34,402 bases of DNA, taken from assembly GCA_027077325.1 (NCBI GenBank), contig JALTGF010000052.1, positions 1 through 34,402 of the forward strand, read 5' to 3'. The position numbers and the translations under genes are program-made. This DNA comes from an archaeon. GTDB lineage: Archaea; Undinarchaeota; Undinarchaeia; Undinarchaeales; JALTGF01. The notes under the pieces were generated by a model. The model had not been told where the DNA came from. It made no database searches and was given only the letters and a program-made list of their open reading frames with translations. Shown here in pieces: positions 6,879 to 34,382 of the stretch. The first letter of the stretch is position 1; each line of letters opens with the position of its first letter.

Positions 6879-7083
6879 TATGAGGCGCCGAGCCCAGTGG
6901 CTGTGGTCAGCCAGCACCCATCCTGCACTCGCTTCGCGAGGCAGGATTTGATTTTTATTTCAAGTACTTGCAAATGTATAAGCGCCGAGACCAGGATTTC
7001 CGCCCCTTTTCTTTTCGCGAAAAGAAAAGGTGTAGGGTAGCCCAAAAGAAAAGGCAAGGTATTACCCTTTTTTTATTATATAT
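6879..7083 (-). repeat. Two ~100-bp units, each with an orphan tRNA-Ser 3'-end copy plus a hairpin
   Basis: 6982-6999 matches 7090-7107 at 17/18 nt; 6879-6897 matches 7084-7102 at 18/19 nt. A perfect 26-nt palindrome lies at 7005-7030 and the hairpin atcctgc-actcgcttcgcgag-gcaggat at ~6920-6947. Confidence 0.85.
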
Positions 7084-7090
7084 TATGAGG

Positions 7091-7215
7091 CGCCGAGGCC
7101 AGGATTTACAGTTCGCAAGCGAACGTAAATGTCCGCTTCGCGCACATTTGAACCTGGAAGGGCAAAGCCCACCTGCTCTCAAGGCAGGCGCGTTACCTGG
7201 TTCCGCCACCTCGGC
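7091..7215 (-). tRNA. tRNA-Ser(TGA) with a 42-nt intron at T-loop 59/60 (7105-7146)
   Basis: Acceptor GCCGAGG/CCTCGGC, discriminator G, anticodon arm CCTGC-CTTGAGA-GCAGG, long variable arm GGGC-TTT-GCCC, T arm CCAGG-TTCAAA|intron|T-CCTGG. Relaxed BHB (TTCA:TGTA). Confidence 0.93.
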
Positions 7216-7265
7216 GTTTGTCAAACCTGTTTGCTATTGTTTAAAAAACTTTCAAGTACTTAAAA

Positions 7266-8105
7266 TTAGCGCTTATCCCATGGTTTTTTAATTTTGCCTT
7301 CATCCATTAGTTTATAAATAACTGCTGCCACGTGCTGGCACATTACAAGAATCTTTCTATGTTGCTGAACAATAAAGTCTTTACATTCACAGCTCCAGTT
7401 CCACTCCTCTGGTTCTCTATCAAGATTTTCAATTGTTACCATTCGGCTTCTGTGAATGTCGCTAAATGAGGGAACTTTTACTAAAACTTTAGTTATTTGT
7501 TTCTTTGAGTTGTAATGTTCTTCAATGTATTTCCAACTTCTAAGCTCTTCTCTATGCAACAAGTAAATTCTCCAACCCTTTGAAAGCCGTTTCCAATCAA
7601 TTAAAAGATGAAACCCAAGTTTATCTGCAGTTCTCTTTCCCCAAGGCAATGCTAACGGTATTGTTTTTCTTTTCCTAAATGAATACGCCTCATATCTATT
7701 AACTAGCCTCTGAAAATCTTTCTGCCAGACCCACTCACTTTTAGCATAAATTAAAAGGGCGCGGGCACAAAAGCAAAAGACAATTTGCCCAACAAGGTCC
7801 TTAAAAAGCCGCTCAATTGCCCAATCCTTTTTCTCATAAATTAACTTTGGAACAGATGTGAAAAAATCAGAGCTTATCTGGACAATTCCTCTCTGCAGCT
7901 TTTTCTCAAAATTTTTTCTGTATCTCTTTGGGATTTTTTCATACAATTCATACAACTTATTTAACAAATCTTCTTTTATTGCTAAATCGTAATTTCTTTC
8001 CAATACCTCTTGTGTTTCTTCCCAGGACAAGTTTTCTCTCTTTGCTTTTAGTATAGAAAGCTCAATCTTCCTAATTGACTTTTCAATGTTCTCTAAATCG
8101 CTCAT
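7266..8105 (-). CDS. SWIM zinc-finger domain protein
   Basis: C-terminal WSCECKDF...MCQHVAAV fits CxCx(n)CxH; basic, helical N-terminus of unknown function. Confidence 0.8.
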   Translation of the reverse strand: MSDLENIEKSIRKIELSILKAKRENLSWEETQEVLERNYDLAIKEDLLNKLYELYEKIPKRYRKNFEKKLQRGIVQISSDFFTSVPKLIYEKKDWAIERLFKDLVGQIVFCFCARALLIYAKSEWVWQKDFQRLVNRYEAYSFRKRKTIPLALPWGKRTADKLGFHLLIDWKRLSKGWRIYLLHREELRSWKYIEEHYNSKKQITKVLVKVPSFSDIHRSRMVTIENLDREPEEWNWSCECKDFIVQQHRKILVMCQHVAAVIYKLMDEGKIKKPWDKR

Positions 8106-8141
8106 AAAAATAGAATGTTTCTTAAAGTATAAATTAATTGC

Positions 8142-8453
8142 TTAACTCTTAACTTCGATCTCAATATTGACTTCTTCTGGCACTTGGATTCTCATAATCT
8201 GCCGCATTACGCGCTCGTTTGGGTCCATATCTAAAAGGCGCTTGTGAATACGCATCTCCCACCTCTCAAAGGATGCAGTTCCATCTCCTGAAACGGATTT
8301 TCTAGTTGTAACCTTTAAGACCTTTGTTGGAAGTGGTATGGGCCCAGCTAAATTGGCCTTTCCAGTTTCTGCAATCTCTTTTATCTGGTTGCAGACCTCA
8401 TTCAACTTGTTTACATCTGTGCTGCTAAGTTTTACTCTTGCTCTTGTTGCCAT
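8142..8453 (-). CDS. rps10: 30S ribosomal protein S10 (uS10)
   Basis: GPIPLPTK...TRKS..GDG...ERWEMRIHKRL. Confidence 0.98.
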   Translation of the reverse strand: MATRARVKLSSTDVNKLNEVCNQIKEIAETGKANLAGPIPLPTKVLKVTTRKSVSGDGTASFERWEMRIHKRLLDMDPNERVMRQIMRIQVPEEVNIEIEVKS

Positions 8454-8518
8454 GTTTTTTATTTAATTGTGAAAGGGGTTTATAAGGGTTTTTATTTTGG
8501 TTATTACAAAATTAAATA

Positions 8519-8549
8519 AAGGAAGAGGTTTGCTTTAACCTCTCTCCTT
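8519..8549. terminator. Stem-loop between tuf and rps10 (terminator/processing-like)
   Basis: aagga-agaggtt / aacctct-c-tcctt inverted repeat just past the tuf stop, followed by T-rich sequence on the minus strand. Confidence 0.45.
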
Positions 8550-8561
8550 ATTGTGGATTAT

Positions 8562-9842
8562 CTATTTCTTCTTTGGAGTTACGTCAATGACCATCCCTGC
8601 ACCAACTGTTGCACCCATATCCCTAATAGCAAACCTGCCCAGTGGTGGGAAGTCTGCTGCTTTTTCAATAACCAAAGGCCTTGTTGGCTTTAACTTAACA
8701 ATTGCCGCATCACCAGTCTTCAAGAACTCTGGGTTCTCTTCCTTGACTGCACCACTTGCTGGATCTATTTTCTTTATCAGTTCAACAAATGTGCATGCTA
8801 CCTGTGCAGTGTGGCAATGGAATACTGGTGTGTACCCTTTAGTTATTGCAGTTGGGTGTTCCAAAACAACAATTTGGGCAGTGAAGTCCTCAACTACTGT
8901 TGGTGGAGAATTTACAGGTCCAGCAACATCTCCTCTCTTGACCTGGTCCTTGGAAATTCCTCGCACATTAAAACCAATGTTGTCCCCTGGCTCTGCTTTC
9001 TCTAATTGCTCGTGGTGCATTTCTATACTTTTAACTTCTCCAGTTGCACCAGATGGCTCAAAGACCAGCTTATCGCCTGGTTTCAAAACACCGGTTTCAA
9101 CTCTGCCTACTGGAACAGTTCCAACCCCTGTAATTGAGTAAACATCCTGGATTGGAATTCTTAATGGCTTGTCAACTGGTTTTTGTGGTGGTTTCAGTGA
9201 ATCCAGTAACTCCATTAAAGTAGGCCCCTTGTACCAACCCATATGCTCTCCTGCTTTCTTGGTAATATTCTCGCTTGTAACAAAAGAAGCAGTTGGGACA
9301 AATGGTACTTCATCTACTTTTGTTCCGAGTGGTTTTAGAAGATCTTCGACTTGTTTCTTTACTTCATTGAATCTCTCTTCTTTCCAATCAACTTCATCCA
9401 TCTTGTTAATTGCAACGATAAGCTGATTGACGCCCAATGTCTTAATTAGCCATGCGTGTTCTTTTGTCTGTGGTTGTATCCCTTCCTTTGCAGAAACAAC
9501 AAGAACTGCTGCGTCTGCTTGGGATGCTCCTGTAATCATATTCTTGACGAAGTCTCGGTGTCCAGGTGCGTCTATTATTGTAAAGTAGTATTTAGCTGTC
9601 TCTAGTTTCTTATGGGCTACATCAATTGTAAGTCCTCGCTCTCTCTCTTCTTTCATTCTGTCCATAACGAATGCCAATCCAAATGTCTCTTTACCTAGCT
9701 TCTTTGCCTCTTCCTGAATCTTTTTCATTTCTTGCTCAGGAATGTTCCCTGTGTCAAAGAGGATTCTCCCTACTGTAGTAGATTTTCCGTGGTCAACGTG
9801 TCCAACGAAGACGACGTTCATATGTGGTTTTCCTTCTGCCAT
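8562..9842 (-). CDS. tuf: Translation elongation factor EF-1 alpha
   Basis: [30 protein letters not shown]; GGAGGT RBS. Confidence 0.99.
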
Positions 9843-9978
9843 GTTTGTTTTTACCTCCGTTTAATTATTATAATTATAATAAGGAATGGCATAAGCATAT
9901 GCTTTTAATGTCATTCTCTTACCTCTGAAGTGCTTTTATTATAATAAAAAAGAAGTATATAAACGCTTCTATTGTCCT

Positions 9979-12171
9979 TCAACCTAAATAATCGCTTGGT
10001 TGCGGCATTTGTTCCTTTAATCCCTTTCTTTTCCTAATTTCCATAATGATCTTTTGTTGAAGGTCATTTGGAAGCTTTTCAAATCCTGCATTTTCGGTGC
10101 TCCAAAGAACTCTGCCTTCGGTAGCAGACCTAATTGCAGATGCAAATCCGAACATATCTGAAACAGGGGCTTTTGCTTCAATTTCTATTGTATCCCCCTC
10201 TTGCTTCATGTCTAAAATCTGGCCTCTTCTGCTTTGCATTTCCTTATTTACAGCGCCCATATGTGTTTCAGGGACTCTTATGAATACCTTCTGTTTTGGC
10301 TCAAGCAAGTAGGGTTGTGCCATTAAAATTGCACCTTTTATTGCAGATCTAACTGCAGGGATTACTTGGGCAGGTCCTCTGTGAATAGCATCCTCGTGAA
10401 GTTTTGTGTCGAGAAGTTTAACTTTAATTCCTGCACACTTCTCATCTGCCAATGGGCCGCGCTTCATTGCTTCTTCAAATGCCTCAACACAAAGTTCAAT
10501 AACTTCTCCTATATGGACTTCTCCTTTTACCATATTCACAAACACATTTGTTCCATAAATATCCACAACTCGCTTTGCTTCTTCTTTGTCCATCCCAAGC
10601 TCTACTAACTCTTGTGTAATTGCTTTTTTCTTTATCCTACCTGGCTTAATGGTTCCATCCGCAATTGCATCATAAATTGGTTTTTCAAGGGGCTCAACTG
10701 TTATGTAAAACTTGTTGTGCTTGTTTGGGCTCTTTCCCTCAACCTCTTGTGATTTTCTGCTAACTGTTTCTCTGTAAACAACAATTGGCTCTGAAGATTG
10801 AATCTCAATCCCGTAATCCTTTGTAATCCTATATTTCCAAATCTCAAGGTGGAGCTCTCCCATGCCTGAGATCTTATGCTCCCCTGTCTCTTCATCAATC
10901 TCTACGTGAATTGCCGGGTCTTGCTTTTCTATGCTTCTTAAAACCTCAATAAGTTTTGGAAGGTCCTTTGTGTTCTTTGCCTCAATTGCTTCTGTAACAA
11001 CTGGCTCGGCTTCCTTTATTGCCTCAAATGGCTCAATTGGGTTTGAAGGGTCACAAGCAGTTTCTCCAGACCTTGCTGCTTTCATTCCAATAACTGCTAC
11101 AATATTGCCTGCTGGGATCTCATCTATTTTGATCCTTTCAGGGCCCATATAAATCCCAACCTGTTGGGTCCTAAAGTTTTGCTTGATGTTCGTTAAGTAA
11201 ATTGTTTCGCCACTTATCAATTTACCAGAAAAGAGCCTTCCAGTTGCAACATCCCCTGCATGTGGGTCTGCAATTATCTTTGTAATCATGAGCGCAAGAG
11301 GTGCGTTAGGATCGCACGCCATAAGTTTCTTTCTCATCTCCTCGTCTTCCCCCGGCCATATCTGGGGTATTCTATATACTTGGGCAGTTTTTGGGTCTGG
11401 AAGATGCTTTATGACCATGTCTAACACAATCTTGTGAAGTGTTGCTCTACGTCCAAGTTGTTTCCATGTTTCTTCTCCTGAGTAAGCGTCAATAATGTCC
11501 TTAAATGTCATATTGAGCTCTTTCATATGTGGGAATGAAAGTGCCCATTTGTGATATGCTGAACCAAACATAACTGAGCCATCTTCAACTTTTACTCGCC
11601 ATTCTTTACCAACTCCTTCTGGTGCGTTTCTCCTAATCAGGTCATTAATTTTTGAGATAATCTTAACAAATTGTTCTTGCATTTCCTGTGGCGTTAATTT
11701 AAGTTCTCTTATCAATCTATCAACCTTGTTTATAAACAGGATTGGCTTTACCCTCTCTCTTAGTGCTTGTCTAAGCACAGTTTCTGTTTGTGGCATTGCC
11801 CCTTCAACAGCATCAACAACTACAATTGCACCATCGACAGCCCTCATAGCACGAATAACATCGCCGCCAAAGTCAACGTGACCTGGTGTGTCTATCAGAT
11901 TAATTAAATAATCGTTGTTCTCGTAATTATGGACCAGTGATACGTTTGCAGCATTAATTGTAATCCCCCTTGCTTGCTCTTGTGGGTCAAAATCCAAATA
12001 AAGTTGTCTTCCAGCAAGTTCTTCTGAAATCATGCCCGAGCCAGCAAGCAAATTATCTGATAAAGTAGTTTTTCCATGATCAATGTGTGCAACTATCCCA
12101 ATGTTCCTAATCCTGTCTGGCTTCCACATTAATTCTTTTACTTTTGCAATTAAATCTTCTCTTCTTCCCAT
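9979..12171 (-). CDS. fusA: Translation elongation factor EF-2
   Basis: [21 protein letters not shown]; diphthamide loop [11 protein letters not shown]. Confidence 0.99.
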
Positions 12172-12176
12172 TGTCT

Positions 12177-12833
12177 CTACCTGGCACTTGATGCCACTCT
12201 TTCAAGTTCAGATTTTTTTGAAATAGAATATGCTTTCTGGTCCCCGTTTGATGCTGATATAAGCTCTTCTGCAAGCGCACTTGAAATTGATGTCTTCTTC
12301 TTAAATGCCCTCTGTCCTGCCCCATGTGCTATAAAACTCAATGCAAGATCAACTCTCCTTTGAGGTGATACATCAACTGCTTTGTGAACTATGATCCCGC
12401 CATGTCGTATCCTTGTCGTCTCTTCTCTTGGAGCTGCATTTTCAATTGCTTCAATTAGTACTTGAATCGGATTTTTCTTTGTCCTCTTCTCCACTTTTTC
12501 AAATGCTTTTAAAACAGCAGAAATCGCCCTTTGTTTCTTTCCAGTGTCTCTTCCGCTTACTCTTTTATGGACCCTGCTATCTTTTAAATGGCCTGTAACC
12601 ATAAGTTTGTTTGCAAGCCTTTCAATAACATTGTACTTTGCCTTTCCAAATCTTTTGCTTGCATACATGCTAAACGAAGTTATTTTTGGATTTTCTAATA
12701 CTGTATATCTTTGAAGGCCTAAATCCTTAACTGTAATATTTCGGATGTCCCATCTTCCCAAAAACATACTATTGGCTCCTTGCAAATCTTTCTGTTTTCC
12801 AGCAATTTTTTTGTCTTTGTTTTTATCTTCCAT
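12177..12833 (-). CDS. rps7: 30S ribosomal protein S7 (uS7)
   Basis: [16 protein letters not shown]...[14 protein letters not shown]...ERVASSAR. Confidence 0.98.
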
Positions 12834-12840
12834 ATCTTCT

Positions 12841-13278
12841 CTATTTCATCGCCTTTTCTTTTCTTCCGTGAACAAGTTCGTTTAAGCTTATCCCATTAAC
12901 CTTAGTAACCTTAAATCTGACACCTGGGATATCTCCCTTTAGTTTTCCGCGTGGTCCACCAATTCCTGCGATCTCAACCTCGTCGTGTTCATCTATAAAT
13001 GAAATTGCCTTATTTCCCGGTGCAAAAGCAGTTACGGACCTGCCACTCTTTATCAATTGAACACGAACGCATTTTCTTATAGCTGAATTTGGCTGTTTTG
13101 CTTCAAGCCCAACTTTCTCTAATACAATTCCTCTGGCTGCAGGCGCACCTCTAAGTGGGGATGCCTTAATGTCTAGCCTTAGGGCTCTTCGCTTATATTT
13201 AGAGTCGTGCCATCTAAATTTCTTCCTTGCTTTTTTTAGCCTTCTTGCGGAGAAAAGTCCGCGCGTCTTATTTGCCAT
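12841..13278 (-). CDS. rps12: 30S ribosomal protein S12 (uS12)
   Basis: [27 protein letters not shown]. Confidence 0.99.
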
Positions 13279-13313
13279 GTGACTATCTATATAAAATCCT
13301 CCCTTTAAATATG

Positions 13314-13745
13314 TTACTTAACAATAACGTCTCCAATATTGTAATGTCTTTTTAATAGGTCTTTTATTAATTGAATGTTTTTCCCTTTCTTTCCAAGTAT
13401 TGTCCCTCTTGCTTTAAAGTCTGCTTCAATTATTATCTTTTTATTTTTTCCGTTTTTTTCAAGGTATATGTTTTTAATCATTGTATTTTGGGTTTTTCCA
13501 ATTAAGTTGCTTGTAAACTTTACGGGATCTTTTGAAAATTCAACTAAATGTACTTTCTTTCCAAGATTTGTGCGTATCTTCTTTACGTTTGCCCCGTTTT
13601 TACCAATTGCTGCGCCAATCTGCCCCTCTTCTATGACATAAACTATTGTGTCTCCATTTACAACGCAATCCTTGACAACTGCTTTGCTTTCATTCTCCAG
13701 AGCTGCAATGTACCTCAATGTCTCAGTATTTAGTTTTATTGTCAT
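13314..13745 (-). CDS. nusA: Archaeal NusA (two KH domains)
   Basis: [12 protein letters not shown] and [13 protein letters not shown] GxxG loops; canonical position after rpoA''. Confidence 0.95.
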
Positions 13746-14893
13746 TTTTTCTTCTCTTTAAACAAATCTGGTTTTAAAATTAGTTCGGGGACTCCTGTTC
13801 CAAGTGCTATAACCTGTCCAACAATTATATTCTCAACAACTCCCTTCAATCTCTCAACTTCGCCATATGCACCTGCTTTTAAGAGGTGCTTTACAGTTTC
13901 TTCAAAACTTGCTCTTGCAAGGACTGACGCCTTGTCTCCTGAGACGCCGTGTCTGCCAATTGCCTTTACAACTCCATCTGCAGTCATTGTATCAGCAACA
14001 AGCGTTATGTGTCTTGGATCAACAGTAAGCCCTGCTTCTTTAAGTGTAATTAATGTTTCGTAGACAAGTGCATTTCTTGCGGCTTCTATTCCAAGCACTT
14101 TTTCTATTTCAAGAATGTCATTTGTCTTAGTCCTGTGGAAATCAATCTCTTTTACTTGTGTAACTCCTTTTAAATTTGACCCTTTTGTGTATAAAACATA
14201 ATCATTCCCCTCTTTTTGAACAACAACATAACTAATCCCCTTAACTCCAGAAACGTTCATATCTTGGACTTCTCTTTTAAGTTTTTGAAGTGCTGCTGCT
14301 GACTTTTTTTTGCTCTTGACAATCAACAAATTCTTTTCAAATCTAATCGCATCTCCGTACTTTTCCTTCATTGTCTTTTCAAGTTTTGATAATGTTACGC
14401 CTCTCTTCTTTAACTCGTTATTATCAATTTCAACCTCAACTTCAAATTTTAGGAAGTTCAATCTTGTTGTTTTCATAACATTCCTAATTCTCGTCTCCCT
14501 AATTGCATGTGCGAGTTTCTCTGCTTTTTCAAGAGTGTTGTACTCTTTTTTTAGGTAGATTGTCATCATTGGTGTCTTTGGTATTTTTCTAGCATCAAAT
14601 ATCTCAATCAGCCTTGGCAGTCCTCTAGTAACATCCATTGCAGTTCCTGCATAGTGTTTTGTTCTCATCATCATCTGTGTTCCTGGCTCTCCAATTGACT
14701 GTGCTGCAATAACTCCGACTCCTTCCCCCGGTTCTATTTTTGCCTTTCCATACGCATCTATAACTGCGTCAACAACTGCCTCTAAATATTTGTTCTTTAT
14801 TTTACCATCCTCATACATCTTATCCAATCTTTTAACAATACTAAGTGGAAGCTCTTCGTTCTTTTGTTTTAAAATTTCATTTATCTTGCTCAT
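13742..14893 (-). CDS. rpoA2: RNA polymerase subunit A'' (Rpo1C)
   Basis: [44 protein letters not shown]. Confidence 0.98.
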
Positions 14894-17451
14894 CTCTTAG
14901 CTCCCTCCTGCACATCTGAAACAATTCTCTCTAAATCTATTGTTCCTCTATCTGATTTTGATGGGTCAATCCCATCCTCTCCATATTTATACTGGATTAT
15001 AACATCCCTGCCATCTCTAACAGTTTCACTATAGTCCACAAGAATGTCCTGTAGTGCGTTTATTAAACGCCTCTGTAGATACCCAGATTTTGGAGTTCTC
15101 ATAGCAGTATCCGTTAGAGACTCGCGGCCTCCCATTGCATGGAAGAAAAATTCTATTGGGTCCATCCCTTCCTTGTAGCTGTCTTTCACAAAACCACGTG
15201 ATTTTGCACCAAGGTCGCCTTTCTTAAAGTGTGGTAAAGTTCTGCCCCTGTACCCTCTCAAAATTCTCTTACCTCTAACTGCCTGCTGTCCAATACAAGC
15301 GCTCATCTGCGTTATGTTAAGCAAAGAACCTCTTGCACCTGTTTTTGCCATTGTAAGTGCAAAATTATCTTTCTTAAGATATTTCTCAGCAATCTCACCA
15401 GCAGCATTTCTGCTCTTGTTTAATTCAAGCATAATAAGTTCTTCTAATGTATCTTTAACGGATTTTCCTTTTGATGGTTTGAGATTTCCTTCTTTGTACT
15501 TTTTAACTAACTCTTTAACTTTCTTTTCTGATTTAAGAAGTACCTCCCCAATTTCTTTTCTGACACTTTCTGGAAGGTCCTCATCATCAAGACCTGTTGT
15601 AAATCCCTTGCTGTCAAGATATGCTACAGAAAGTTTAGTGATCCCATTTAAGAAATCTCTTGCTGCATTTGTTCCGCCTCTCCTTAGTACTTCCTCGAGC
15701 AAGATTCCACCCATTGCTCCAACTGCCCTGTCATCTATAACTCCTTTTACTAGTTTTCCATCTTTAATTATTACATCATTCCCATCCCTTGACTTAAACT
15801 TAATATTTATATTGTCTGGCACAAACACACTAAACAATTCTTTTCCATCAATTTCATCTTTGTTAAATGGGAACTCTTCAGTATAACCTGCCATTGCAAG
15901 AATGTCTTCTGCTTCCTTTCTAGTAAACTTAGAATTAGTTAAGAAATAAAGCCCAGTTATGTGGTCGTGAATTGCCCCTATTATTGGTCCTGCAAACCTT
16001 GGTGACCTGATCTGGGTTTGAACTTGCATCAAAATTCTTGCTTCTGTTCTTGCTTCCTCTGTCTGGGGAACATGCAAGTTCATCTCGTCCCCATCAAAGT
16101 CTGCGTTATATGGGGTACAAACTGCTAAGTTAAGCCTAAATGTTCTCCCCGGCATTACTCTCGCCCTGTGTGCCATTATTGACATTCGGTGAAGTGAAGG
16201 CTGTCTGTTAAATAAAACAATATCCCCATCTACTAAGTGACGCTCTACCTTATACCCTACTGTTAGTTCTTCTGCAAGTTCCTTTGCATTATCTTCTGTT
16301 ATTTTCTTTCTCTTTCCATCGGGCCTAATAATATAATTTGCACCTGGGTACTCATCTCCCCTTAAAACTAACTTCTTGAGTTTTTCTAAATTAATTGAAG
16401 TTGCCCTCTCAGGTATTGTCATCTCTTTAGCAATCTCGAGAGGAATCCCAACTTCGTCAATGCTTATGTTTGGGTCTGGTGAAATTACAGTTCTTGCAGA
16501 GAAATCAACACGCTTTCCAGCAAGGCTGTTTCTAAATCGCCCTTCTTTCCCTTTGAGCCTTTGCTTTAATGTTTTAAGTGGCCTTCCTGACCTGTGCCTT
16601 GCAACAGGAATTCCTGTTGTTGAGTTATCTAAATAAGTTGTTACGTGATATTGGACAAGTTCCCACTGGTCCTCTATGATTAGGTGAGGCGCTCCTGCTT
16701 CTATGTTCTCTTTCAACCTTTGGTTAAGTCTGATAATATCCACGAGTTTGTGTGTTAAGTCATCTTCAGACCTTTCACCTGTTTCAAGCGTTATTGATGG
16801 TCTTGTTGTGACCGGCGGAACTGGCAAAACAGTAAGCACCATCCATTCTGGCCTTGCAGTTTCTGGCTTAAGCCCAAAAATGTAAGCATCATCATCTGGT
16901 ATTTTTTCAAGTCGATCCCTTATGTCTGTTGGCATTAATCTCTGGGTTCCTTCTATGTATGTTGTTGGTTTTTCAAACTTTATTTTATGCTGTTTTGCAC
17001 CACAGTGTGGGCATGTACTTGCTTTTTTTGCTTCTTTAAATACATCCTTTACAATGCTTTCAAACTCAATCTCTCCCCCTAGCACATTATCTAGCCTTTT
17101 CTTGTACTCGTCAATTTTTTGTTGAGGGAGCAAAACTCTTGAGCACTCACTACATGTTGCTTGTAGAATGTTGTGAATATATTTTGCGTAGCCCACATGA
17201 ATTACTGGCCTTGCAAGTTCAATATATCCGAAGTGGCCAGGGCAGTCACCCATTTTTGACTTACATGTCCTGCACCTAAGTCCGGGATCAATAACTCCCA
17301 TTCGTGGGTCCATCAGCCCACCCTTAATTGGATAACCATCTGTATCGTGAGTATCTGGAGTGACTATCTTAGCCACTGCCATTTTCTTAATCATTTTTGG
17401 GCTTAGTATCCCAAATTTTATCTTTCCAATTTTCTTATTGACTTCAATCAT
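14890..17451 (-). CDS. rpoA1: RNA polymerase subunit A' (Rpo1N)
   Basis: Catalytic [10 protein letters not shown], zinc-binding Cxx[19 protein letters not shown]. Confidence 0.99.
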
Positions 17452-19308
17452 CTACCCCTTATCCTCCAATATTAATTTTGGATAAATGCCCATTGATTTC
17501 ATCTCATCAAGCAGAAGCTTAAATGCATAAGACATCTCTACAAATTCTACGTCTGCATTTTCACCACAAATTGGGCAATAAGCATAATCCCTAAATTTAT
17601 CATAAACCGCTACGGTCCCACACTTTGTGCATACTGGGACTATTGTTTTATCTGACTCATCTAGCAGGCGTTCTTTTAATAGGAGCGCAGCGCCGTGACC
17701 AACTAGGCAGTCCTTTTCCATTTCTCCAAGCCTTAGCCCACCTTCTCTTGCTTTTCCAGCAGTTGGCTGTCTTGTAAGTATCTGGACAGGACCTCTCGAC
17801 CTTGCCCTTATCTTGTCAATAACCATGTGCTTTAATTTTTGATAATAAACAACGCCAACAAAAATCTCTGCTTCTAATTTTACTCCTGTAACTCCATTGT
17901 ACATAACTTCTTTTCCAGTGCTCTTAAAGCCATACTTCTTCAATGCTTCTCTCATTTGCTCTTCTGGCTCACCTGAAAATGGGGTTCCATCAATAAATCT
18001 GCCTTCAAGCGATCCAAGTTTTCCTCCAACTGTTTCTAATAACTGCCCTACTGTCATTCTTGAAGGTATTGCGTGAGGATTAATTATCAAATCTGGTGTT
18101 ATCCCTTGCTCAGTAAATGGCATATCCTCTTGTGGGACTATCATCCCAATAACTCCTTTTTGTCCATGCCGTGAAGCAAACTTATCTCCAATTTCTGGGA
18201 TTCTAGTGTCTCTTGTCTTTACTTTCACAAGTTTGTCTCCATCTAAATTTTCAGAAACTAAAACATTATCAACAATTCCGCCTTCCCCAACCCTAACGGC
18301 AACAGAACTTTCTCTTCTATGCTCAACAGACCTTCCAAATTCTTCCATAACTTCTAAGAATCTTGGTGGGGATGTCTTTCCAATTAATACATCTCCTTCG
18401 CCAACTACGCATTCTGGCTCTATAACCCCATCTTCGTCTAAATAGCGATAGGCGTGCTCTGACAAGTATCCTCTTACTTCTTTGTCTGGAATCTCTATTT
18501 TATCAACTTGTCCTCCCGGATATTTTCTTTCCTCTGCCTTATATGTCCTAAAGAATACTGACCTTCCTAACCCCCTCTCAATTGATGCCTTGTTCATAAT
18601 TAATGCATCCTGCATGTTGTACCCTTTGTATGAAATAATTGCAACAACAAAATTTTGTCCAGATGGTCTTCTATTATAATTAATTATATCTGACCCAAGT
18701 GTTTTAACAATTGGCTTTTGGGGGTAATATAAAATATGCCTCTGGGTGTCTGTCCTAATATTGAAATTTGCAGTATACAACCCTATCCCTTGCTTTGACA
18801 TATTTGCCCCTAATGTTACACGGGTTGCCATGTTGTGATTTAAGAACGGAACAAGGCCTGCGCAAATCCCAAATATTACTGCAGGGTCTATCTCAAGATG
18901 TGTATGCTCTGGTGTTAAATCCTCTTTATTTATTGCAACATATGCGTTTTCTTCTTCAGATGCATCAAGATACTCAATAACACCCTCCCTTAGTAAGTCA
19001 TCCCAAGTAAGTTCACCAGAGTTTAATTTCTCAATGTGCTCCTGGGTGAGTTTAGGCTTTCCTTCTTCAACTTTTATTAATGGCCTAATTACCCGCCCTT
19101 CGTCACTCCATATATCTATCTCGGACTCTTCTCTAGAATACGATATGCTGACTTCAGGAGAAATAATTCCTCGGTTCCTCATATCTTTTAAATTAATGAC
19201 AATACTCTTTGGCTTTGTTGTTTCTCCAATAATTCTCCCATTTAGATAAACCTTGTACACCTTCTCTTTTTTGGTATGTTCTTGTGCGGTCTTGATTTGT
19301 TTTTTCAT
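17452..19308 (-). CDS. rpoB1: RNA polymerase subunit B' (Rpo2C)
   Basis: [24 protein letters not shown]-terminal zinc ribbon. Confidence 0.98.
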
Positions 19309-21048: not shown

Positions 21049-21173
21049 TGGGGGGCCCGACGGGATTTTCCTTCACATTGCCTATGCAATGTGTATTTTG
21101 AACCCGCGACCCCTTGGTTTCTTCGCCTTTCGGCTTAAAAGCCAAGTGCTCTCCCAGCCTGAGCTACGGGCCC
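21049..21173 (-). tRNA. tRNA-Lys(TTT) with two introns: 17 nt at 37/38 (21119-21135) and 31 nt at 59/60 (21066-21096); encoded CCA
   Basis: Acceptor GGGCCCG/CGGGCCC. Anticodon arm CTTGG-CTTTTA|AGCCGAAAGGCGAAGAA|A-CCAAG with BHB CTTT:GAAG. T arm GCGGG-TTCAAA|...CACATTGC-ATAG-GCAATGTG...GGAAAA|T-CCCGT. Confidence 0.94.
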
Positions 21174-23310: not shown

Positions 23311-23407
23311 CCCCCGATAGCTCAACGGTAGAGCGGCCGGCTGTAGTTCGTCACTCGCGTTGCGAGTAGAAACCGGCAGGTTCCAGGTTCAAATCCAGGT
23401 CGGGGGA
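23311..23407 (+). tRNA. tRNA-Tyr(GTA) with a 25-nt canonical 37/38 intron (23347-23371)
   Basis: C1-G72 acceptor CCCCCGA/TCGGGGG, discriminator A; GCCGG-CTGTAG|intron|A-CCGGC; BHB CTGT:GTAG; T stem CCAGG/CCAGG has an A.A mismatch. Confidence 0.92.
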
Positions 23408-24623: not shown

Positions 24624-24625
24624 AT

Positions 24626-27387: not shown

Positions 27388-28377
27388 CTAATCGCCATAT
27401 CCATTTGGATGCTTGCTATGCCATTCCCACGCGCTTGAAATAATTTCATTTATCCCATACTCAGGGCTCCAACCAAAAAGTTTTTTTGCTTTTTTATAGG
27501 ACGCAATAAGCACTGGTGGGTCTCCCGCCCTCCTTTTTTCATAGGTTACTGGTATCTCCATGCTAGTAATCTTTCTGCATGCTTCTATAATGTCTTTGAC
27601 AGAGTATCCTTTCTCATTTCCAAGATTGACTTCCTCACTTTTCATATGATCCCCCATATACTCAAGGGCAAGTTTGTGTGCCTTGCAAATATCTAGGACA
27701 TGAATATAATCTCTAACTGCTGTGCCGTCCTTGGTTGGATAGTCTGTTCCATATACGCTTATCTCCTTGCGTTTTTTCAATGCTACCTGCAAAACTAGCG
27801 GTATTAAGTGAGTTTCAGGCTGGTGGTCCTCGCCAATGTCCCCGCTAAAGTCTGCCCCGGCAACATTGAAATATCTCAAAGCAACATACTTAAGACCATA
27901 GGATTTATCATATCTTCTCAGTATTTGTTCAACCATCAATTTTGTCAGTCCATAGGTGTTTATAGGTTTTTTCGGATGGTCTTCTGTAATTGGTGTGTAT
28001 ACGGGAACTCCATAAACTGCTGCTGATGAGGAAAATACCAACTTTAAGCAGTTATGCTGTATCATCGCATCCAGCAAATTTATTGTATTCACAACATTGT
28101 TTCTAAAAAATTTTTTTGGGTCCCTCTCCGATTCACCAACTTCTATGGAACCAGCCAGATGGATTACAGAATCAATATCATGCTTGTTAAAAATTTTGTC
28201 TAATCCCTTTTTATCAGATAGGTCAATCTTGTAAAATGTTGTGCCTTTTGGAAGTGCTTCTTTGTGGCCATTTGACAAATTATCCAAGACAATTATGTTT
28301 TTCCCGGATTTTTTTAAGTAGTGAACTATATGGCTCCCAATATATCCCGCGCCACCTGTAACTAATGTGTATTTCAT
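27388..28377 (-). CDS. galE: UDP-glucose 4-epimerase
   Basis: GGAGYIGSH, SSSAAVYG, YGLTK, LRYFNVAGA, DGTAVRDYIHV. Confidence 0.96.
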   Translation of the reverse strand: MKYTLVTGGAGYIGSHIVHYLKKSGKNIIVLDNLSNGHKEALPKGTTFYKIDLSDKKGLDKIFNKHDIDSVIHLAGSIEVGESERDPKKFFRNNVVNTINLLDAMIQHNCLKLVFSSSAAVYGVPVYTPITEDHPKKPINTYGLTKLMVEQILRRYDKSYGLKYVALRYFNVAGADFSGDIGEDHQPETHLIPLVLQVALKKRKEISVYGTDYPTKDGTAVRDYIHVLDICKAHKLALEYMGDHMKSEEVNLGNEKGYSVKDIIEACRKITSMEIPVTYEKRRAGDPPVLIASYKKAKKLFGWSPEYGINEIISSAWEWHSKHPNGYGD

Positions 28378-28775
28378 TGTTTCTCCTTTTTATTACCTGT
28401 TTTCTTATTATAATATACGTCCTGAGTAAAATCTATAAAACTGTCAACAATTGCTATTCCTGTTGTTAGCGGGGAAATAATTCCTATAAGGACTGGGGAA
28501 ACAAGCCCCCTGGGAGGGATAACCCCAAATATCTCCAGCAGGCCTATAACTGAGATTAGTATCACAAGTGGCCCGTGTTCAAGCGAATATGGAATTGACC
28601 TTTCATAAATAGGGTCTATGAAAATGTCCTTTAATGTGAGAATAATCACCAGCCACAATAGGTAATCCTGCAAATTATATTGAAATACCAAGTACAAAAA
28701 AGCAAGCCATATCAGAAACCATATTGGATACAACTTTTTTATCCTGGCTATCCCTTCAGTGCTCATAATCAACAA
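28374..28775 (-). CDS. Hypothetical membrane protein
   Basis: About 4 hydrophobic segments; its stop overlaps the galE start (ATGA). Confidence 0.65.
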   Translation of the reverse strand: MLIMSTEGIARIKKLYPIWFLIWLAFLYLVFQYNLQDYLLWLVIILTLKDIFIDPIYERSIPYSLEHGPLVILISVIGLLEIFGVIPPRGLVSPVLIGIISPLTTGIAIVDSFIDFTQDVYYNKKTGNKKEKQ

Positions 28776-28848
28776 AGTATGGTTTACAAGATTTATAACT
28801 TTTGATTTGTCCTATATTTTTTAAACTATTAACTTCAATTATACCTTT

Positions 28849-29529
28849 ATGAAACTTGCAGTTCTTTTCTCAGGGGGAAAGGATTCAGCCTATGCTTTGT
28901 TTAAGGCAATGCAAAAAGAAGAAGTGGCTTGCTTAATTTCCATCCTTTCTGAAAACAAAGAAAGCTTCATGTTTCACACCCCAAACATTGAAATTACAAA
29001 GCTCCAGGCAGAAGCAATTGGCCTTCCTCTAATCCAAAAGCTCACGCCGGGGGAAAAAGAGAAAGAGCTTGAAGACTTGAAAGCCGCAATTCAGGAAGCA
29101 AAAGAAAAATTCGGGATTGGAGGCGTTGTGACCGGCGCGATTGAGTCCGTTTACCAGGCGTCGCGCGTGCAAAGAATTTGCAATGACCTAAACCTTTGGT
29201 GCTTTAATCCGCTTTGGCTAAAAGGCCAGGAATCCCTGCTTTATGAAATCCTAAAAAACAATTTTAAAGTAATTATCTCTGGGGTTTTTGCTTATCCTCT
29301 CAACAAAGAATGGCTCGGCCGCGCGCTGGATGAAGAAACTGTGAAGGAACTTGTTAAACTTCGCGAGAAATACAAGATAAGCCCTTCCGGCGAGGGCGGG
29401 GAAATTGAAACAACTGTTCTGGATGCACCGTTTTTCAAAAAGAGTATTGAGATTCTTGAATCAGAAGTAAAGGCAGGCAGGGACTCAGGAATTTTTATAA
29501 TAAAGAAAGCGAGGCTGGCTGAAAAATGA
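28849..29529 (+). CDS. dph6: Diphthine-ammonia ligase family PP-loop ATPase (Dph6/DUF71)
   Basis: LFSGGKDS, SFMFH, GAIESVYQ, GEGGEIETTVLDAPFF. Confidence 0.9.
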   Translation: MKLAVLFSGGKDSAYALFKAMQKEEVACLISILSENKESFMFHTPNIEITKLQAEAIGLPLIQKLTPGEKEKELEDLKAAIQEAKEKFGIGGVVTGAIESVYQASRVQRICNDLNLWCFNPLWLKGQESLLYEILKNNFKVIISGVFAYPLNKEWLGRALDEETVKELVKLREKYKISPSGEGGEIETTVLDAPFFKKSIEILESEVKAGRDSGIFIIKKARLAEK

Positions 29530-30056
29530 TTTTAATTATCGACATGAACCAAAAGGAAAATTCTCTCGCATTTTCTGAATTCGTGGAGCCGATTGTTTCA
29601 CTTGCCGGGAACTGTGAAGTAAGGCATTACTTAAACTTGCCACAGGACTTTAGCAACTATGAAAAAGTAGTCCTCTGCGGCGCGCCTTTAAAAGATGTTG
29701 CTTATCTTGACCATTTGGAAAAGTTTCAATGGCTGAAAACTTTTAAAGGAAGCGTCCTTGGAATTTGCGCCGGTGTGCAGGTGATTGCGCTTGTTTTTGG
29801 CTCCTCTGTAAAAAAGTGCACAGAAATTGGAATGACTGAAATTGAAACATTAAAAGAAAACCCCTTGTTTTCCTCAAAGTTTAAGGCGTACGAGCTTCAC
29901 AACCTATCATTTGAGCCATCTGAAAGTTTTGAAGTCCTTGCAAAATCAGAAAAATGCGCCCAGGCAATAAAGCACAAGAAAAAGGAAATTTACGGGGTTT
30001 TGTTTCATCCAGAGGTTAGGAATAAGGGAGTGATTAGGGGGTTTGTGAATTTGTGA
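29526..30056 (+). CDS. Class I glutamine amidotransferase (stand-alone)
   Basis: Nucleophile elbow LGICAGVQ and GVLFHPE give an intact Cys-His-Glu triad; ATGA overlap with dph6. Confidence 0.87.
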   Translation: MILIIDMNQKENSLAFSEFVEPIVSLAGNCEVRHYLNLPQDFSNYEKVVLCGAPLKDVAYLDHLEKFQWLKTFKGSVLGICAGVQVIALVFGSSVKKCTEIGMTEIETLKENPLFSSKFKAYELHNLSFEPSESFEVLAKSEKCAQAIKHKKKEIYGVLFHPEVRNKGVIRGFVNL

Positions 30057-30133
30057 GGCGCAGGTAATAACTGTGATCAAGAGTAAACTCTTTCAGAAAA
30101 ATTTTCTATCTTTCCCGCCGCCCAAAGATTTTT

Positions 30134-31186
30134 CTAACGGGTGAGCGTTCTTTTATTTTTAAATTCTATTTTTCTAGCATATCTTATATTTTCTAATTGT
30201 AATTCTGCTGTTTTTAGAAGTTCATCAAAAGTAATAATTCTTATATGGGGTCTTAAATGCCTATTCCATTCATCAATCCATTTAATCTGTTCCTTATCTA
30301 ATTTGTAGCCAATCACAATATAACCAACAGGTGCCTGAATTTTATAAACTCCTGCTGTGCTGTATTCACTATATACATCTGACATTCTCATATACATAAT
30401 TAATTGATTAAGACCTTCAGCAAGTTCGTTAGTAATATGTAATCTTCCATCTTCTTTTTTCTTAAAAAATGGCTTGAGATTTGGACTTTTGAATTCAAAA
30501 ATTTTGTTTTCTCCAAGATCTGTTTTAATGTGCAAGTCAATAGCAAGTTGGGGATCTACTTCTTTTTCTTTTGCTTTTACTTCGCAATCAATACCAAGAA
30601 CCCACCTATTTTCTCTTATCTTCTTTTTTATCTCGGTTTCATTTCGTTTATTGTTTTTGTAAGAATCTTCTATTTTATTTTCTAATTCCTTTAAAGCTTT
30701 TTCATAATCTTCTAATTTGTTGATAATTTCTTTCGCTAATTCTAATTCATTCTCTTTTCTATTTAATTTTTCTTTCAACTCTTGAATATGCTGCTCCTTT
30801 GTTATTTGTTCGCTTCTCAATTCTTGTAGTTCTTTTTCTAGTTCTTGTTCTTGTTTTTTATAATATTCAAGTTCTTCTGCAATATCCGATATTTCCTTGC
30901 CCCAGATTTGAGATACAAATCTCCTCAATGTTTTGTAAAGCCAATTAAACCACTCCTTTAAATTAATGCTTTTAGGAATCCACACCCCGGGATGATGCTC
31001 TTTAAAATATGGTTGTGTTTTGGCAGTTCTTATTTTAATTCCTTCGTAATCATTTGAATTTTTGCTTATAGAAACTTGGGTAACAAAAGAATCATCTGAC
31101 CATTTTTCTGAATCTATATCTTTAATATACTCTAGTTTAGAAAAATCGTCTCTTCTTGATTTTTTCTTCTTATCTTTCCTAATCAT
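30134..31186 (-). CDS. Shedu (SduA/DUF4263)-like nuclease with a central coiled coil
   Basis: C-terminal ID...IFEFKSP...GLNQL..Y...YIVIG...IRIITFDELL fits the DUF4263 pattern; ~80-aa coiled coil in the middle. Confidence 0.72.
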   Translation of the reverse strand: MIRKDKKKKSRRDDFSKLEYIKDIDSEKWSDDSFVTQVSISKNSNDYEGIKIRTAKTQPYFKEHHPGVWIPKSINLKEWFNWLYKTLRRFVSQIWGKEISDIAEELEYYKKQEQELEKELQELRSEQITKEQHIQELKEKLNRKENELELAKEIINKLEDYEKALKELENKIEDSYKNNKRNETEIKKKIRENRWVLGIDCEVKAKEKEVDPQLAIDLHIKTDLGENKIFEFKSPNLKPFFKKKEDGRLHITNELAEGLNQLIMYMRMSDVYSEYSTAGVYKIQAPVGYIVIGYKLDKEQIKWIDEWNRHLRPHIRIITFDELLKTAELQLENIRYARKIEFKNKRTLTR

Positions 31187-31197
31187 CTTTTATCATC

Positions 31198-33732
31198 TTA
31201 AGTGACAATATTTCCAAACTCTTCTCTCAATTTATGAATTTCAGAAACAGCCGCCCATTTTTTATAAAAAGCATCTTTTATTCTTTTACTTATTTTTAAT
31301 CTTTGATTTCTATTCTTTGCTATTGGCAAATACAACTCTTTCCAACGATCACCAATATTAGGCAAAGTTGTCTCGATAAATATTTTATTGTATAGCTGTT
31401 GTTGTGTTAGTTCATGAGATAATAAATAAATTAGATAATATGGGTTTATGTCCCATCTATTTTTTTCATTTATCACTCTTAAAACAAGCAATTCTCTAGT
31501 TAGAAGTACTTGTTTGTCATAAGGAGAGACCATAGCAACTGTACCTATCCTGTAACTGCCTCTTCTAACAAATATTAGATCTCTTTCTCGTAAATCAACG
31601 CCGTTTTTACCTTTAATTTTTTGATACACATGAAAGGGTATTAAAGATGTTGGATCTTTATAAAGTTCCCAATTAACTATATCTTTTACTCGGATATATG
31701 GTATCTCCCCTCTGCCTTTAAATTTACCTGGTGGTGAACCATGCCCATCAAAAGCTACAATTATCTTATTTTTCAATAATTCTTTTATTTGAATAAGTTC
31801 CAATCCTTGTTTCTCTGCTGCTTTTTTAAGTTCTTCCTCTCTTCTTTTCCAGTAATATCGTGGTACATAAGTATCGTGTTTAATCTCCTCTTTGCCTATA
31901 ACAAAAACATTATGGTTATTCTTATTCTCTGGATCTTTAATTTCTTTTCTAATTATAACTGTATCATCCCACAACTCATTGGTAAATTTTTGTTTTTCAT
32001 AATCAAAACGATAAATTAGTTTACCATTGTGATCGTGTCCCACCTCTTCAGCAACAGCCATTATTATTTTATCTTGTTGAGGCACATTTTTCTGAAGAAC
32101 TAATAACATTGTTTTTGCGTTACAATTTGGTCTAAATGTGTTATGAGCCAAATCAATTATTGCCTTGATATTATGTTTTTTTATAAATCCCAGTATATAC
32201 CTACTCTGTGGGGCATGGAAATATGTCTCTGGAAGAACGATACCTAAAATACCACCATCCTTGAGAAAATGTAAACATCTTTCAATAAATAAAACCTGTG
32301 GTTCTTCAGTTTCTTTTAAAATATTCGTTCTTTCAAATCGATCTTCTTCTTTTTTCCATTTATAAGCTAAGTCAAATTGCTTTAATTTTTCCTCACCTTC
32401 TACTTTAATTTTAGAACCGAAAGGCGGATTTGTTAAAACGATATCAAACATTTCAAATTTTATTTTTTCTCTAGTTTTACTCTTCCAATTTTTTGAGTTA
32501 TCAAGGCTATCCTCACAAAATACTCCACCTTTTCCGTCACCAATTATGGCCATGTAAGCTTTCGTCACTTTTGATAAGAAATAATCTTTATCAATTCCTC
32601 TAAAGTTTTCATTAGCTACTCTATTTTTTTCTCTTTCTATTTCATAAGGTGACCATCCATATTTTTGTCCTTCTTGTTCTACCTTTTTCCATACATATCG
32701 TAAACTATCTACCAAAAAACCACCACTTCCACAAGCAGGATCTAAAATTAAATCTTCGGGGGAAGGATCTATGACCTCTACAAGCGTTTGTATGACATTT
32801 CTCGGAGTAAAAAATTGTCCTTGAGAACCTTTGAGAGCTGGTCCAATAAAGGTTTCAAACGCATCAGCTATAACATCTCTTTCTGCTTCTAGCAAACAGA
32901 AATTTTGTAATTCTCCAACGGTATATGCTATTGATTTAGCATCTAATGTTATCTTATCGTCGGGATCTATGACTTCTTTATACTTTCCTTTAACACCATA
33001 ATAGAAGGGATCGCTTTTATCTAAAGTCTTATCTCCCTCAAAAATTTTTATAATCCGTTCTTTGATTTTTTTTGGATCTTCTCCCACTCCTGCCCTGAAT
33101 TTTACTATATCGTCAGGTTTAGTAAATTTTTCATCAAATATTTTACAAAAGATTATATTGATAAGTTGTTGAGCAAATACTTCGTCTCTTGTCACTCCAA
33201 CTGCCATCCCTGCCAAATAATTTCTCATCGCTTGAAAAACGAATTTTAAATTGTGAGATTTTTCCAGATCTCTTCTCTTAAATTTTCCTATATCTTCGAT
33301 TCTTTGACCAGCTTTTGGTATATTAGGTATCTCCTCAAAATAAACTTTACCTTTTTTTTCAATTTTTTTCAAGAATAGTCTTTCCTTACTATTAAACCAC
33401 ACTCCAAGAGGTGCTTCAGAAAATCTTAGATAATCTTGTAATTGTGATTTACCATCCTTTCTATTTTTCTTTTTACATTCAACAACTATCCATAGATTTT
33501 CATCAGATTTTTTATCTGATTTAAATACTGCAATATCCACTGGATATTCTTTTTTCTTATCGGAAGGTCTGGCTTTTACTCTCCACTGTGGATGTGTTTG
33601 TATTTGGGATTTTTTGTATCCATAATCTTCTACTAAAGTTCTAGCAAAAACTTGTACAGCTTCAACTTCTTCAGGAGTTGCTTTTACTTCTTGGTCTGAT
33701 ATAAAATCCTTAATATATCCTTCTTTAGTCAT
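31198..33732 (-). CDS. Fused restriction endonuclease / N6-adenine methyltransferase / TRD (type IIG-like)
   Basis: N-terminal TPEE...VDIAVF...VECK (HsdR_N-like PD-(D/E)xK); GQFFTPR, LDPACGSGGFL, NPPF; one C-terminal HsdS-like TRD (IPYIRVKDI...DLIFVRRG..IG). Confidence 0.9.
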   Translation of the reverse strand: MTKEGYIKDFISDQEVKATPEEVEAVQVFARTLVEDYGYKKSQIQTHPQWRVKARPSDKKKEYPVDIAVFKSDKKSDENLWIVVECKKKNRKDGKSQLQDYLRFSEAPLGVWFNSKERLFLKKIEKKGKVYFEEIPNIPKAGQRIEDIGKFKRRDLEKSHNLKFVFQAMRNYLAGMAVGVTRDEVFAQQLINIIFCKIFDEKFTKPDDIVKFRAGVGEDPKKIKERIIKIFEGDKTLDKSDPFYYGVKGKYKEVIDPDDKITLDAKSIAYTVGELQNFCLLEAERDVIADAFETFIGPALKGSQGQFFTPRNVIQTLVEVIDPSPEDLILDPACGSGGFLVDSLRYVWKKVEQEGQKYGWSPYEIEREKNRVANENFRGIDKDYFLSKVTKAYMAIIGDGKGGVFCEDSLDNSKNWKSKTREKIKFEMFDIVLTNPPFGSKIKVEGEEKLKQFDLAYKWKKEEDRFERTNILKETEEPQVLFIERCLHFLKDGGILGIVLPETYFHAPQSRYILGFIKKHNIKAIIDLAHNTFRPNCNAKTMLLVLQKNVPQQDKIIMAVAEEVGHDHNGKLIYRFDYEKQKFTNELWDDTVIIRKEIKDPENKNNHNVFVIGKEEIKHDTYVPRYYWKRREEELKKAAEKQGLELIQIKELLKNKIIVAFDGHGSPPGKFKGRGEIPYIRVKDIVNWELYKDPTSLIPFHVYQKIKGKNGVDLRERDLIFVRRGSYRIGTVAMVSPYDKQVLLTRELLVLRVINEKNRWDINPYYLIYLLSHELTQQQLYNKIFIETTLPNIGDRWKELYLPIAKNRNQRLKISKRIKDAFYKKWAAVSEIHKLREEFGNIVT

Positions 33733-33880
33733 ATTCTCTACCTATTTTAATTTTCTCTAATTCTTTTTTCATAAACATTTCAACTTGTTTAGACAAAATA
33801 ATTCCTCTCTCATCACAATATTTTTTATATTCATCATAAATTTTCTCATCAACACTTAACGATACAGTTTTTCTTCCCAT
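33725..33880 (-). CDS. Small ribbon-helix-helix (CopG/MetJ-like) DNA-binding protein, 51 aa
   Basis: MGRKTVSLSVDEKIYDEYKKYCDERGIILSKQVEMFMKKELEKIKIGREYD; GAGGGG RBS; overlaps the RM gene start by 8 nt; below the ORF-track cutoff. Confidence 0.78.
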   Translation of the reverse strand: MGRKTVSLSVDEKIYDEYKKYCDERGIILSKQVEMFMKKELEKIKIGREYD

Positions 33881-34182
33881 TTTAACCCCTCATTTATCAT
33901 TATATAAGTTTAAATGTATCCATTTAAATATTTTTTTAAGAGCCAGCGCTTTGCTTCTCCTTGCTTATAGCTTTTTACAGAAAAAGTAGCCGAGCGCTTC
34001 TTCCCTTATTCTTTCCGGAACTTTGAGTAGGCAGTGCCTGCAATATATTACTCTTCCTTTTTTAATTTGCTTTAGGGATACAGAGTTCTCCCCCTTGCAA
34101 AAGGGGCACACATACCTATATTTCCAACCCATTTTCCTGTAGTCTTCAATCCCGCTTTTCCCACCAAGATGTTAATGTTTAA

Positions 34183-34382
34183 AGCCCCGAGGGAGAGTTG
34201 AACTCCCGACCTCCTGTTTGCTTGAGCCTTATGCGAGCGCGCTTGCGCGCGAGCCATGCTATCTCGCGAAGCGAGTGTAGCATATTTTTCGCCAGCCTTT
34301 TCAGGATGGCGCAAGCACTTACCCGTTCACATGTTAAAAGGCTGTACAAGACAGGCGCTCTAGCCAGCTGAGCTATCGAGGC
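34183..34382 (-). tRNA. tRNA-Thr(TGT) with a long 126-nt canonical 37/38 intron (34219-34344)
   Basis: Acceptor GCCTCGA/TCGGGGC; CCTGT-CTTGTA|intron|A-ACAGG; strict BHB CTTG:CAAG with bulges TA|C and CA|A, flanked by AGCCTT:AAGGCT; GGGAG-TTCAACT-CTCCC. Confidence 0.93.

Follow-up and report, generated by a model that had tools for sequence, protein, structure and literature searches.

Multi-hairpin cassettes shared by tRNA trailers and tRNA introns in Undinarchaeales

Small gene-less cassettes composed of several hairpins are found behind tRNA genes and inside tRNA introns of an archaeon of the Undinarchaeales and of its sister genomes. They were recognised in a contig of 34,402 nucleotides (JALTGF010000052.1 of assembly GCA_027077325.1, positions 1 to 34,402), referred to below as the window, in which a 15-base hairpin recurs at three distant tRNA loci: a repeat array behind a tRNA-Ser gene (6926..6940, plus strand), an intron of a tRNA-Tyr gene (23352..23366, plus strand) and an intron of a tRNA-Thr gene (34263-34277). 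We give about even chances to the reading that the 15-mer of the Ser array and of the Thr intron is the tip of one bulged hairpin within these cassettes, which were likely copied as DNA between different tRNA genes, likely by homology-guided recombination or template switching, with survival in a tRNA loop limited to copies that can be spliced as introns. The cassettes have defined ends and covarying stems, are patchily distributed in the sister genomes and are accompanied by a copy of the host tRNA 3' end, from about position 59 onwards, or of its 5' start. One of them, the E-R cassette, occurs both as an unspliced trailer and as an intron between positions 37 and 38 (37/38 intron) in three different tRNAs. 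The 15-mer alone is of minor importance and serves to mark the cassettes.

The window is contig C52 of the genome bin G000 (769 kb in 186 contigs, 75.9% complete) and encodes an archaeal RNA polymerase and the elongation factors EF-2 and EF-1a, recognised from their sequence. It was compared with the sister genomes G001 and G002, both of one genus, and with a sample of the phylum amounting to 17 genomes, the genomes compared being 72-98% complete. The tRNA-Thr locus is present in the G000 bin as two alleles, on C40 and on C52 (98.6% identity over 221 nt), which indicates some strain mixing.

The gene for tRNA-Thr(TGT) (34183..34382, minus strand) is interrupted by a 126-nt 37/38 intron (34219-34344) that folds into a bulge-helix-bulge motif, a four-pair helix between two 3-nt bulges. 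Its first module is hairpin E (34293..34344), accompanied by hairpin R (34256..34283), which holds the 15-mer and shows a TTC loop on the tRNA strand, and by hairpin S (34237..34250), all three on the minus strand. The Thr intron shares 82% identity over 82 nt with the intron that tRNA-Pro(GGG) of G001 has at 37/38, and 89% over 37 nt, hairpin S included, with that of tRNA-Glu(CTC) of the same genome. The three introns begin with the same module, located at most 3 nt from the splice site. Orthologues free of any intron were identified for tRNA-Thr(TGT) in G001, G002 and G003 and for tRNA-Pro(GGG) in G000 and G002, and tRNA-Glu(CTC) of G000 and G002 has no 37/38 intron. The same hairpin E opens the trailers located directly behind 7 of the 33 tRNA genes of G001 and 10 of the 37 of G002, and is followed there by hairpin R in three and four cases, respectively. 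When a profile was constructed from four trailer cassettes of G001 and G002 only, the two Thr-intron alleles came out at ranks 1 and 2 in G000 (E-values 4e-4 and 3.9e-3).

The second setting is the array located behind the tRNA-Ser(TGA) gene (7091..7215, minus strand), which itself contains a 42-nt intron in the T-loop, between positions 59 and 60 (7105-7146). The gene is followed on the same strand by cassette A as first spacer (7000..7089), a first copy of its own 3' end (6982..6999, positions 57-73 with one mismatch), cassette B as second spacer (6898..6981) and a second 3'-end copy (6879..6897, positions 62-73 plus 7 nt of trailer). Cassette B, of about 84 bp, is composed of an AT-rich head, a bulged hairpin (6920-6947) whose apical part is the 15-mer, with a GAA loop on the tRNA strand, and a second hairpin. 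Copies of cassette B with 76-94% identity were found at no fewer than six types of tRNA in G000, i.e. Ser, Pro(TGG), Gly(GCC), Gln(TTG), Leu(CAG) in two instances and, truncated, Val(GAC), and a relative also lies behind Leu(GAG) in G002. The G000 copies other than that of Ser are on other contigs, and a duplicate of the host's own 3' end usually comes after them. In an eight-row alignment of its hairpin, for which the structure was taken from the window copy and the rows were chosen by hand, both sides changed in 5 of the 12 pairs and 96.8% of the cells could pair, a value reached by 1 in 500 shuffles. The loop counts 3 nt in five of the eight rows and is longer in the three others. Homologues of cassette A are located behind Ile, Phe, Pro and Glu tRNAs in G001 and G002. 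An inverted copy resides within the T-loop intron of a tRNA-Gly of G010 (87% identity over 53 nt), with a weaker match in a Leu intron of G003.

The array spacers and the introns had been proposed to draw on one sequence pool, and this proposal is borne out by the cassette relatives found in both settings across independent genomes. Both orientations relative to the tRNA were observed as well, which favours a process at the DNA level. The bulged hairpins of cassette B and of hairpin R are likely homologous, judging from 17 shared bases and from one inverted B hairpin on contig C46 that was matched by a hairpin-R profile built without the window rows (E-value 5e-4). A cassette-A pattern matched four loci of a genome collection, all of them in Undinarchaeota/Undinarchaeales. 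A 28-nt cassette-B pattern had 0 matches in metagenomes, and the six matches of a hairpin-R pattern all fell in unrelated DNA of 54-72% GC.

In G001, copies of the host's own 3' end trail 7 of the 33 tRNA genes; the figures are 8 of 37 for G002 and 4 of 27 parsed genes for G000, two G000 genes being left out of this count. Such copies were also identified at sampled loci of G004 (2 of 7), G006 (1 of 6), G009 (1 of 5) and G012 (1 of 6). In a set of 30 copies, to which the Phe and Pro(TGG) genes of G000 and three long-intron genes of G001 were added, mismatches to the host tRNA number 14 at position 57, 12 at position 58 and 4 at position 59, with 5-7 at positions 60-62; the low counts past position 63 are partly set by the selection filter. 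The copies are 11-51 bp long, start at positions 53-63 and reach 0-36 nt beyond position 73. None begins before position 53 despite lengths of up to 51 bp (P ~0.005 against random placement, related copies not being independent). Which cassette is present, or whether there is any, differs between orthologous tRNAs of G001 and G002. Mirror-image copies of 5' starts were found upstream of Leu, Thr, His, Ser and Glu tRNA genes. The duplications are not confined to tRNA genes, as hairpin cassettes on G015:C79 and G004:C7 lie between 30-40-bp duplicates of protein-gene starts. Similarly, a 62-bp hairpin insert is flanked by two copies of the last 54 bp of endA, the gene of the tRNA splicing endonuclease (G000:C3:516-685). 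The single PF01974 match of G000 is a 177-residue open reading frame (ORF) on this contig, and the endA duplicate is in frame with an upstream ATG, forming an ORF of 38 residues. Some other readings of the copies were set aside. Each host tRNA is complete and the 3' pieces lie downstream, contrary to split or permuted tRNAs. An orphan 'intron plus 3' exon' does not hold as a general reading, the splice helix not being formed by most spacer ends on inspection, and reverse transcription of mature tRNA is disfavoured by copies that include trailer and carry no added CCA.

Two observations favour homology-guided copying. The tRNA-Phe and tRNA-Pro(GGG) genes of G001 carry an identical cassette A, whose left junction shows seven bases common to both, and position 62 of the Pro duplicate is occupied by the base of Phe. 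Cassette D was found behind one T-stem sequence only, all four carriers (4 of 4) belonging to the 6 of 70 genes that have this T-stem; a fifth match, the upstream neighbour of a carrier, was dropped. In the corresponding model, the folded tRNA gene would take up a founding insertion in its T-loop or D-loop, together with a duplication of the gene end, which would leave the tRNA intact. The acceptor end and the T-loop would then serve as crossover points for later spread by recombination or template switching at short sequences common to tRNA ends, without the need for a dedicated transposase, and the intron form would be a rare viable outcome. More tentatively, and at less than even probability, a single DNA-level process may give rise to both tRNA-linked repeat arrays and new introns, leaving a trailer when the gene end is duplicated and a bulge-helix-bulge intron when it is not; the Thr, Pro and Glu introns would then represent three independent births.

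Several points weigh against this interpretation. The Phe/Pro chimera consists of one base at one locus pair and could be explained by a point change. Founding insertions, inverted copies, the endA duplication and the host-specific splice helix are not accounted for by homology-guided copying. The polarity of the introns is deduced by parsimony over three or four draft genomes, in which precise loss is possible. Searches for an empty allele of the array gave none in two runs, and the one run with a match to the contig is perhaps the window's own source. The hairpin-R profile built without the window rows missed the window's own sites, and no 3'-end copy was found in 54 T-arms sampled from ten other genomes of the phylum. 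Finally, a helper enzyme may have been missed in genomes of this completeness.

The 15-base hairpin itself is strongly associated with tRNA loci. The three 15-mers are located where the sequence-only reading had placed them, in tRNA genes, introns and spacers that it had identified correctly. Those at 6926 and 34263 are exact reverse complements and that of the Tyr intron departs from them only in the loop, at two of three bases. Also confirmed were the accessory hairpins noticed at 7105-7146, within the Ser T-loop intron, and at 34237-34250, within the Thr intron. The motif CTCGC-N3-GCGAG occurs three times in the window against 0.02 expected (100 shuffles) and six times in G000 against 0.108 expected. 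It ranks first of the 1024 hairpins with five pairs and a three-base loop (P 2e-9 before correction for post-hoc choice), and the same arms at other spacings (10-200) yield a mean of 0.115 matches in the genome. The anticipated enrichment at tRNA sites was recovered: all six matches fall no further than 250 bp from a tRNA gene, a zone covering 2.1% of the assembly. They represent about three independent units, C40 being the second Thr allele and three matches being copies of one longer cassette.

The Tyr site is the weakest member of the three. The tRNA-Tyr(GTA) gene (23311..23407, plus strand) contains a 25-nt 37/38 intron (23347-23371) in which, by inspection, the 3' arm of the 15-mer overlaps the splice helix. 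An orthologous intron is present in G002, the two hairpins being related by one compensatory pair, and different small hairpins occupy the site in G001 and in more distant genomes. The window's Tyr intron was matched by none of three cassette profiles and its fold is not better than that of shuffles (z -1.3). The hairpin at the Tyr site was likely inherited as part of an older intron, and its 15-mer could be a coincidence or else an old derivative.

The sequence-only reading had viewed the 13-15-nt GCGAAGC mini-hairpin as an independent micro-element resembling repetitive extragenic palindromic (REP) sequences and carried by an HUH enzyme into introns already present. The tRNA-locus enrichment, the two orientations and one HUH gene in G000 agree with this idea, which is nonetheless largely refuted and now appears very improbable. 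At the Ser and Thr sites, the 15-mer never stands alone and is only the tip of cassettes of 60-130 bp; their stems covary while the loop varies from 3 to about 20 nt, so that the mini-hairpin is dispensable. Excerpts of one source describe the GCGNAGC DNA mini-hairpin as a GNA triloop with closing GC pairs (PMC13037366). On one strand it can form at the Ser-array and Thr sites, but the Tyr loop, likely inherited, allows it on neither strand, and it is lost in relatives with longer loops. Insertion into existing introns is doubtful for Thr, whose orthologues have no intron whatever. No copy was seen away from tRNA loci, and the target duplications are long. The Y1_Tnp family (PF01797) was found in 0 of 17 phylum genomes and RAYT (NF047646) in 0 of 5. 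The search for HUH and RAYT genes returned only an IS91-type transposase gene next to an integrase on C146, an unanchored 2.5-kb contig of G000 whose mid-range tetranucleotide profile speaks neither for nor against contamination. This gene is present in 0 of 16 relatives, six of which carry cassettes with duplications. A serious rival, if still an unlikely one, considers the cassettes as non-autonomous mobile elements for which a dedicated enzyme, possibly of viral or plasmid origin, nicks the hairpin loops of tRNA genes and generates long variable target duplications. It would explain the fixed cassette ends, the fact that several unrelated cassette families have their junction close to position 59, the conserved hairpins in both orientations and the like duplications at the ends of protein genes (endA, G004, G015). 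Against it, the enzyme families other than Y1_Tnp and RAYT are sparse as well: Y2_Tnp, reverse transcriptase, Cas1 and GIY-YIG were each found in 1 of 17 genomes, Cas1 in none of G000-G002, and tyrosine recombinase (PF00589) in 2 of 5, with none found in G001, G004 or G009. No candidate enzyme tracks the cassettes, DDE families not being part of the search. Terminal inverted repeats were not seen, and viral contigs gave three matches to cassette patterns in one scan, none in a tRNA context, and 0 in another. The T-stem restriction of cassette D and the Phe/Pro chimera also fit homology better.

Two further alternatives are each improbable. The cassettes could have travelled through RNA, excised introns or pieces of cut pre-tRNA being re-ligated or reverse-spliced, reverse-transcribed and recombined, so that spacers would derive from introns. 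The coincidence of the duplication boundary with the T-loop splice region speaks for this route, as does the 87% identity of the T-loop introns of the two G000 Ser tRNAs, Ser(TGA) in the window and Ser(CGA) on C40, the intron of the former being absent from G001 and G002; this likeness can be compared with the intron transposition described for Thermoproteales in excerpts of PMC4033280. As much as 36 nt of genomic trailer is nevertheless present in the copies, an added CCA is not, both cassette orientations occur, and most spacer ends form no splice helix on inspection. The only reverse transcriptase among the 17 genomes is of group II intron type and lies on C179, an unanchored 1.9-kb contig of G000. 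Trailers might alternatively be retained for a function in the host, as oligo-T terminators, processing decoys or small RNAs, and be homogenised by gene conversion, an explanation to which we give a similarly small weight. It would suit the T-run of hairpin E directly behind the above 7 and 10 tRNA genes of G001 and G002 and the covarying stems, and some Escherichia coli tRNA-linked repeats (TLRs) undergo transcription and are bound by Hfq and CsrA according to excerpts of one account (PMC8144298). It is opposed by the lack of trailers behind most tRNA genes, by the differences between G001 and G002 orthologues and by the occurrence of the same modules upstream, inverted and within introns.

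The cassettes resemble several known systems in part. REP elements and bacterial interspersed mosaic elements exist as many dispersed intergenic copies; IS200/IS605 elements insert without target duplication, and REP elements are likewise not known to generate long duplications. The cassettes share with them short bulged GC-rich hairpins in both orientations, but they are few, tied to tRNA genes, flanked by duplications of 11-51 bp and without a Y1 transposase found. Casposons and miniature inverted-repeat transposable elements have terminal inverted repeats and a Cas1 or DDE partner; in contrast, no terminal inverted repeat is visible in cassettes A and B, and Cas1 is restricted to one of the 17 genomes. 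Mitochondrial double-hairpin elements and GC clusters are likewise small DNAs made of several hairpins, devoid of genes and spreading without a known enzyme; they differ in being organellar, and the excerpts available on them report neither tRNA-end duplications nor introns spliced by proteins. Fujishima reportedly described in 2010 the transposed bulge-helix-bulge tRNA introns of Thermoproteales. Excerpts of two other accounts present related bulge-helix-bulge introns among different tRNA types in this order (PMC4033280; 10.64898/2026.10.13.758758). The related introns of Thr(TGT) in G000 and of Pro(GGG) and Glu(CTC) in G001, bounded by the splice motif and with empty orthologues, are comparable to these, with the difference that they are modular and also exist as unspliced trailer or leader cassettes with end duplications.

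In E. coli, TLRs lie behind tRNA genes, one to several per locus, and end in a copy of 18-19 bp of the last bases of the upstream tRNA; known since 1978, they have neither a known function nor a known route of spread, according to excerpts of the same report as above (PMC8144298). The 30 copies and the Ser and Phe arrays show the same layout, each unit following a tRNA gene and closing with a duplicate of its 3' end, and the likeness is one of layout only. Unlike TLRs, they are archaeal, their copies often include trailer and vary more in length, several cassette families are spread across many tRNA types, mirror copies exist at 5' starts, and splice-ready introns are built from the same modules. 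Integrative elements and att remnants at tRNA genes, as well as an archaeal tRNA disrupted by a mobile element, are described in excerpts of PMC3293823, and insertion with long target duplication is known from excerpts of PMC2853133. An insert flanked by a partial tRNA copy and long variable direct repeats are common to these and to the cassettes. By contrast, the cassette inserts measure 40-250 bp and contain no gene and no integrase, and the ends of one cassette match its host behind each of many tRNA types, an outcome that a fixed attP could not yield. On contig C28 of G002, a tyrosine-recombinase gene starts about 75 bp behind tRNA-Gly(TCC) and likely belongs to an ordinary integrated element.

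In the literature outside subscription papers and bioRxiv supplements, no account of trailer/intron cassettes in Undinarchaeota or DPANN was found. The parts are known, as TLRs and as the intron families of Thermoproteales; cassettes common to trailers and introns in DPANN archaea appear to be new. If the reading of a single DNA-level process is true, they would provide a concrete route of tRNA intron gain in archaea and an origin for tRNA-linked repeats. The presence of one cassette as trailer and as intron with empty orthologues makes donors, junctions and polarity directly testable. Cassette introns also hide or mislabel tRNA genes in annotation: one tRNA call reported a single tRNA in the window, where there are at least six, and the tRNA-Thr(TGT) gene was labelled Ala by ARAGORN.

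T-loop introns were found in at least eight tRNA genes of G000 (Ser twice, Leu, Glu twice, Lys, Pro and Phe; window 21052-21173 and 4212-4326, and contigs C19, C40 and C181) and, among the genes listed for G001 and G002, in Asp alone. Introns at 59/60 are described in ARMAN archaea in excerpts of PMC3239211. The tRNA-Phe(GAA) locus of the window (4102..4326, minus strand) has the same layout as the Ser array, with the gene at 4212-4326, its T-loop intron at 4226-4266, cassette C at about 4124-4211 and a 3'-end copy at 4102-4123. By inspection, the bulge-helix-bulge motif is strict in the Phe T-loop intron and relaxed in the Ser and Tyr introns. On contig C11 of G001 (17100-17830 of locus L154), the anticodon arm of a tRNA-Phe is split by an insert of about 650 bp with what by eye is apparently a LAGLIDADG-like ORF.

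A 4.1-kb defence island lies 3' of tRNA-Thr (30038-34183) and is missing from the C40 allele; no tRNA-end duplicate was found at its flanks. It encodes a Shedu SduA-like protein (30134-31186) and a methyltransferase of restriction-modification type of 844 residues (31198-33732). Small contigs of G000 (C60, C101, C153, C157 and C23) comprise clusters of another palindromic repeat family and one rRNA-like contig of outlying composition, possibly bacterial contamination of the bin. At the other end of the window, an ORF of at least 1339 residues with internal repeats (3-4019) is open at the contig end.

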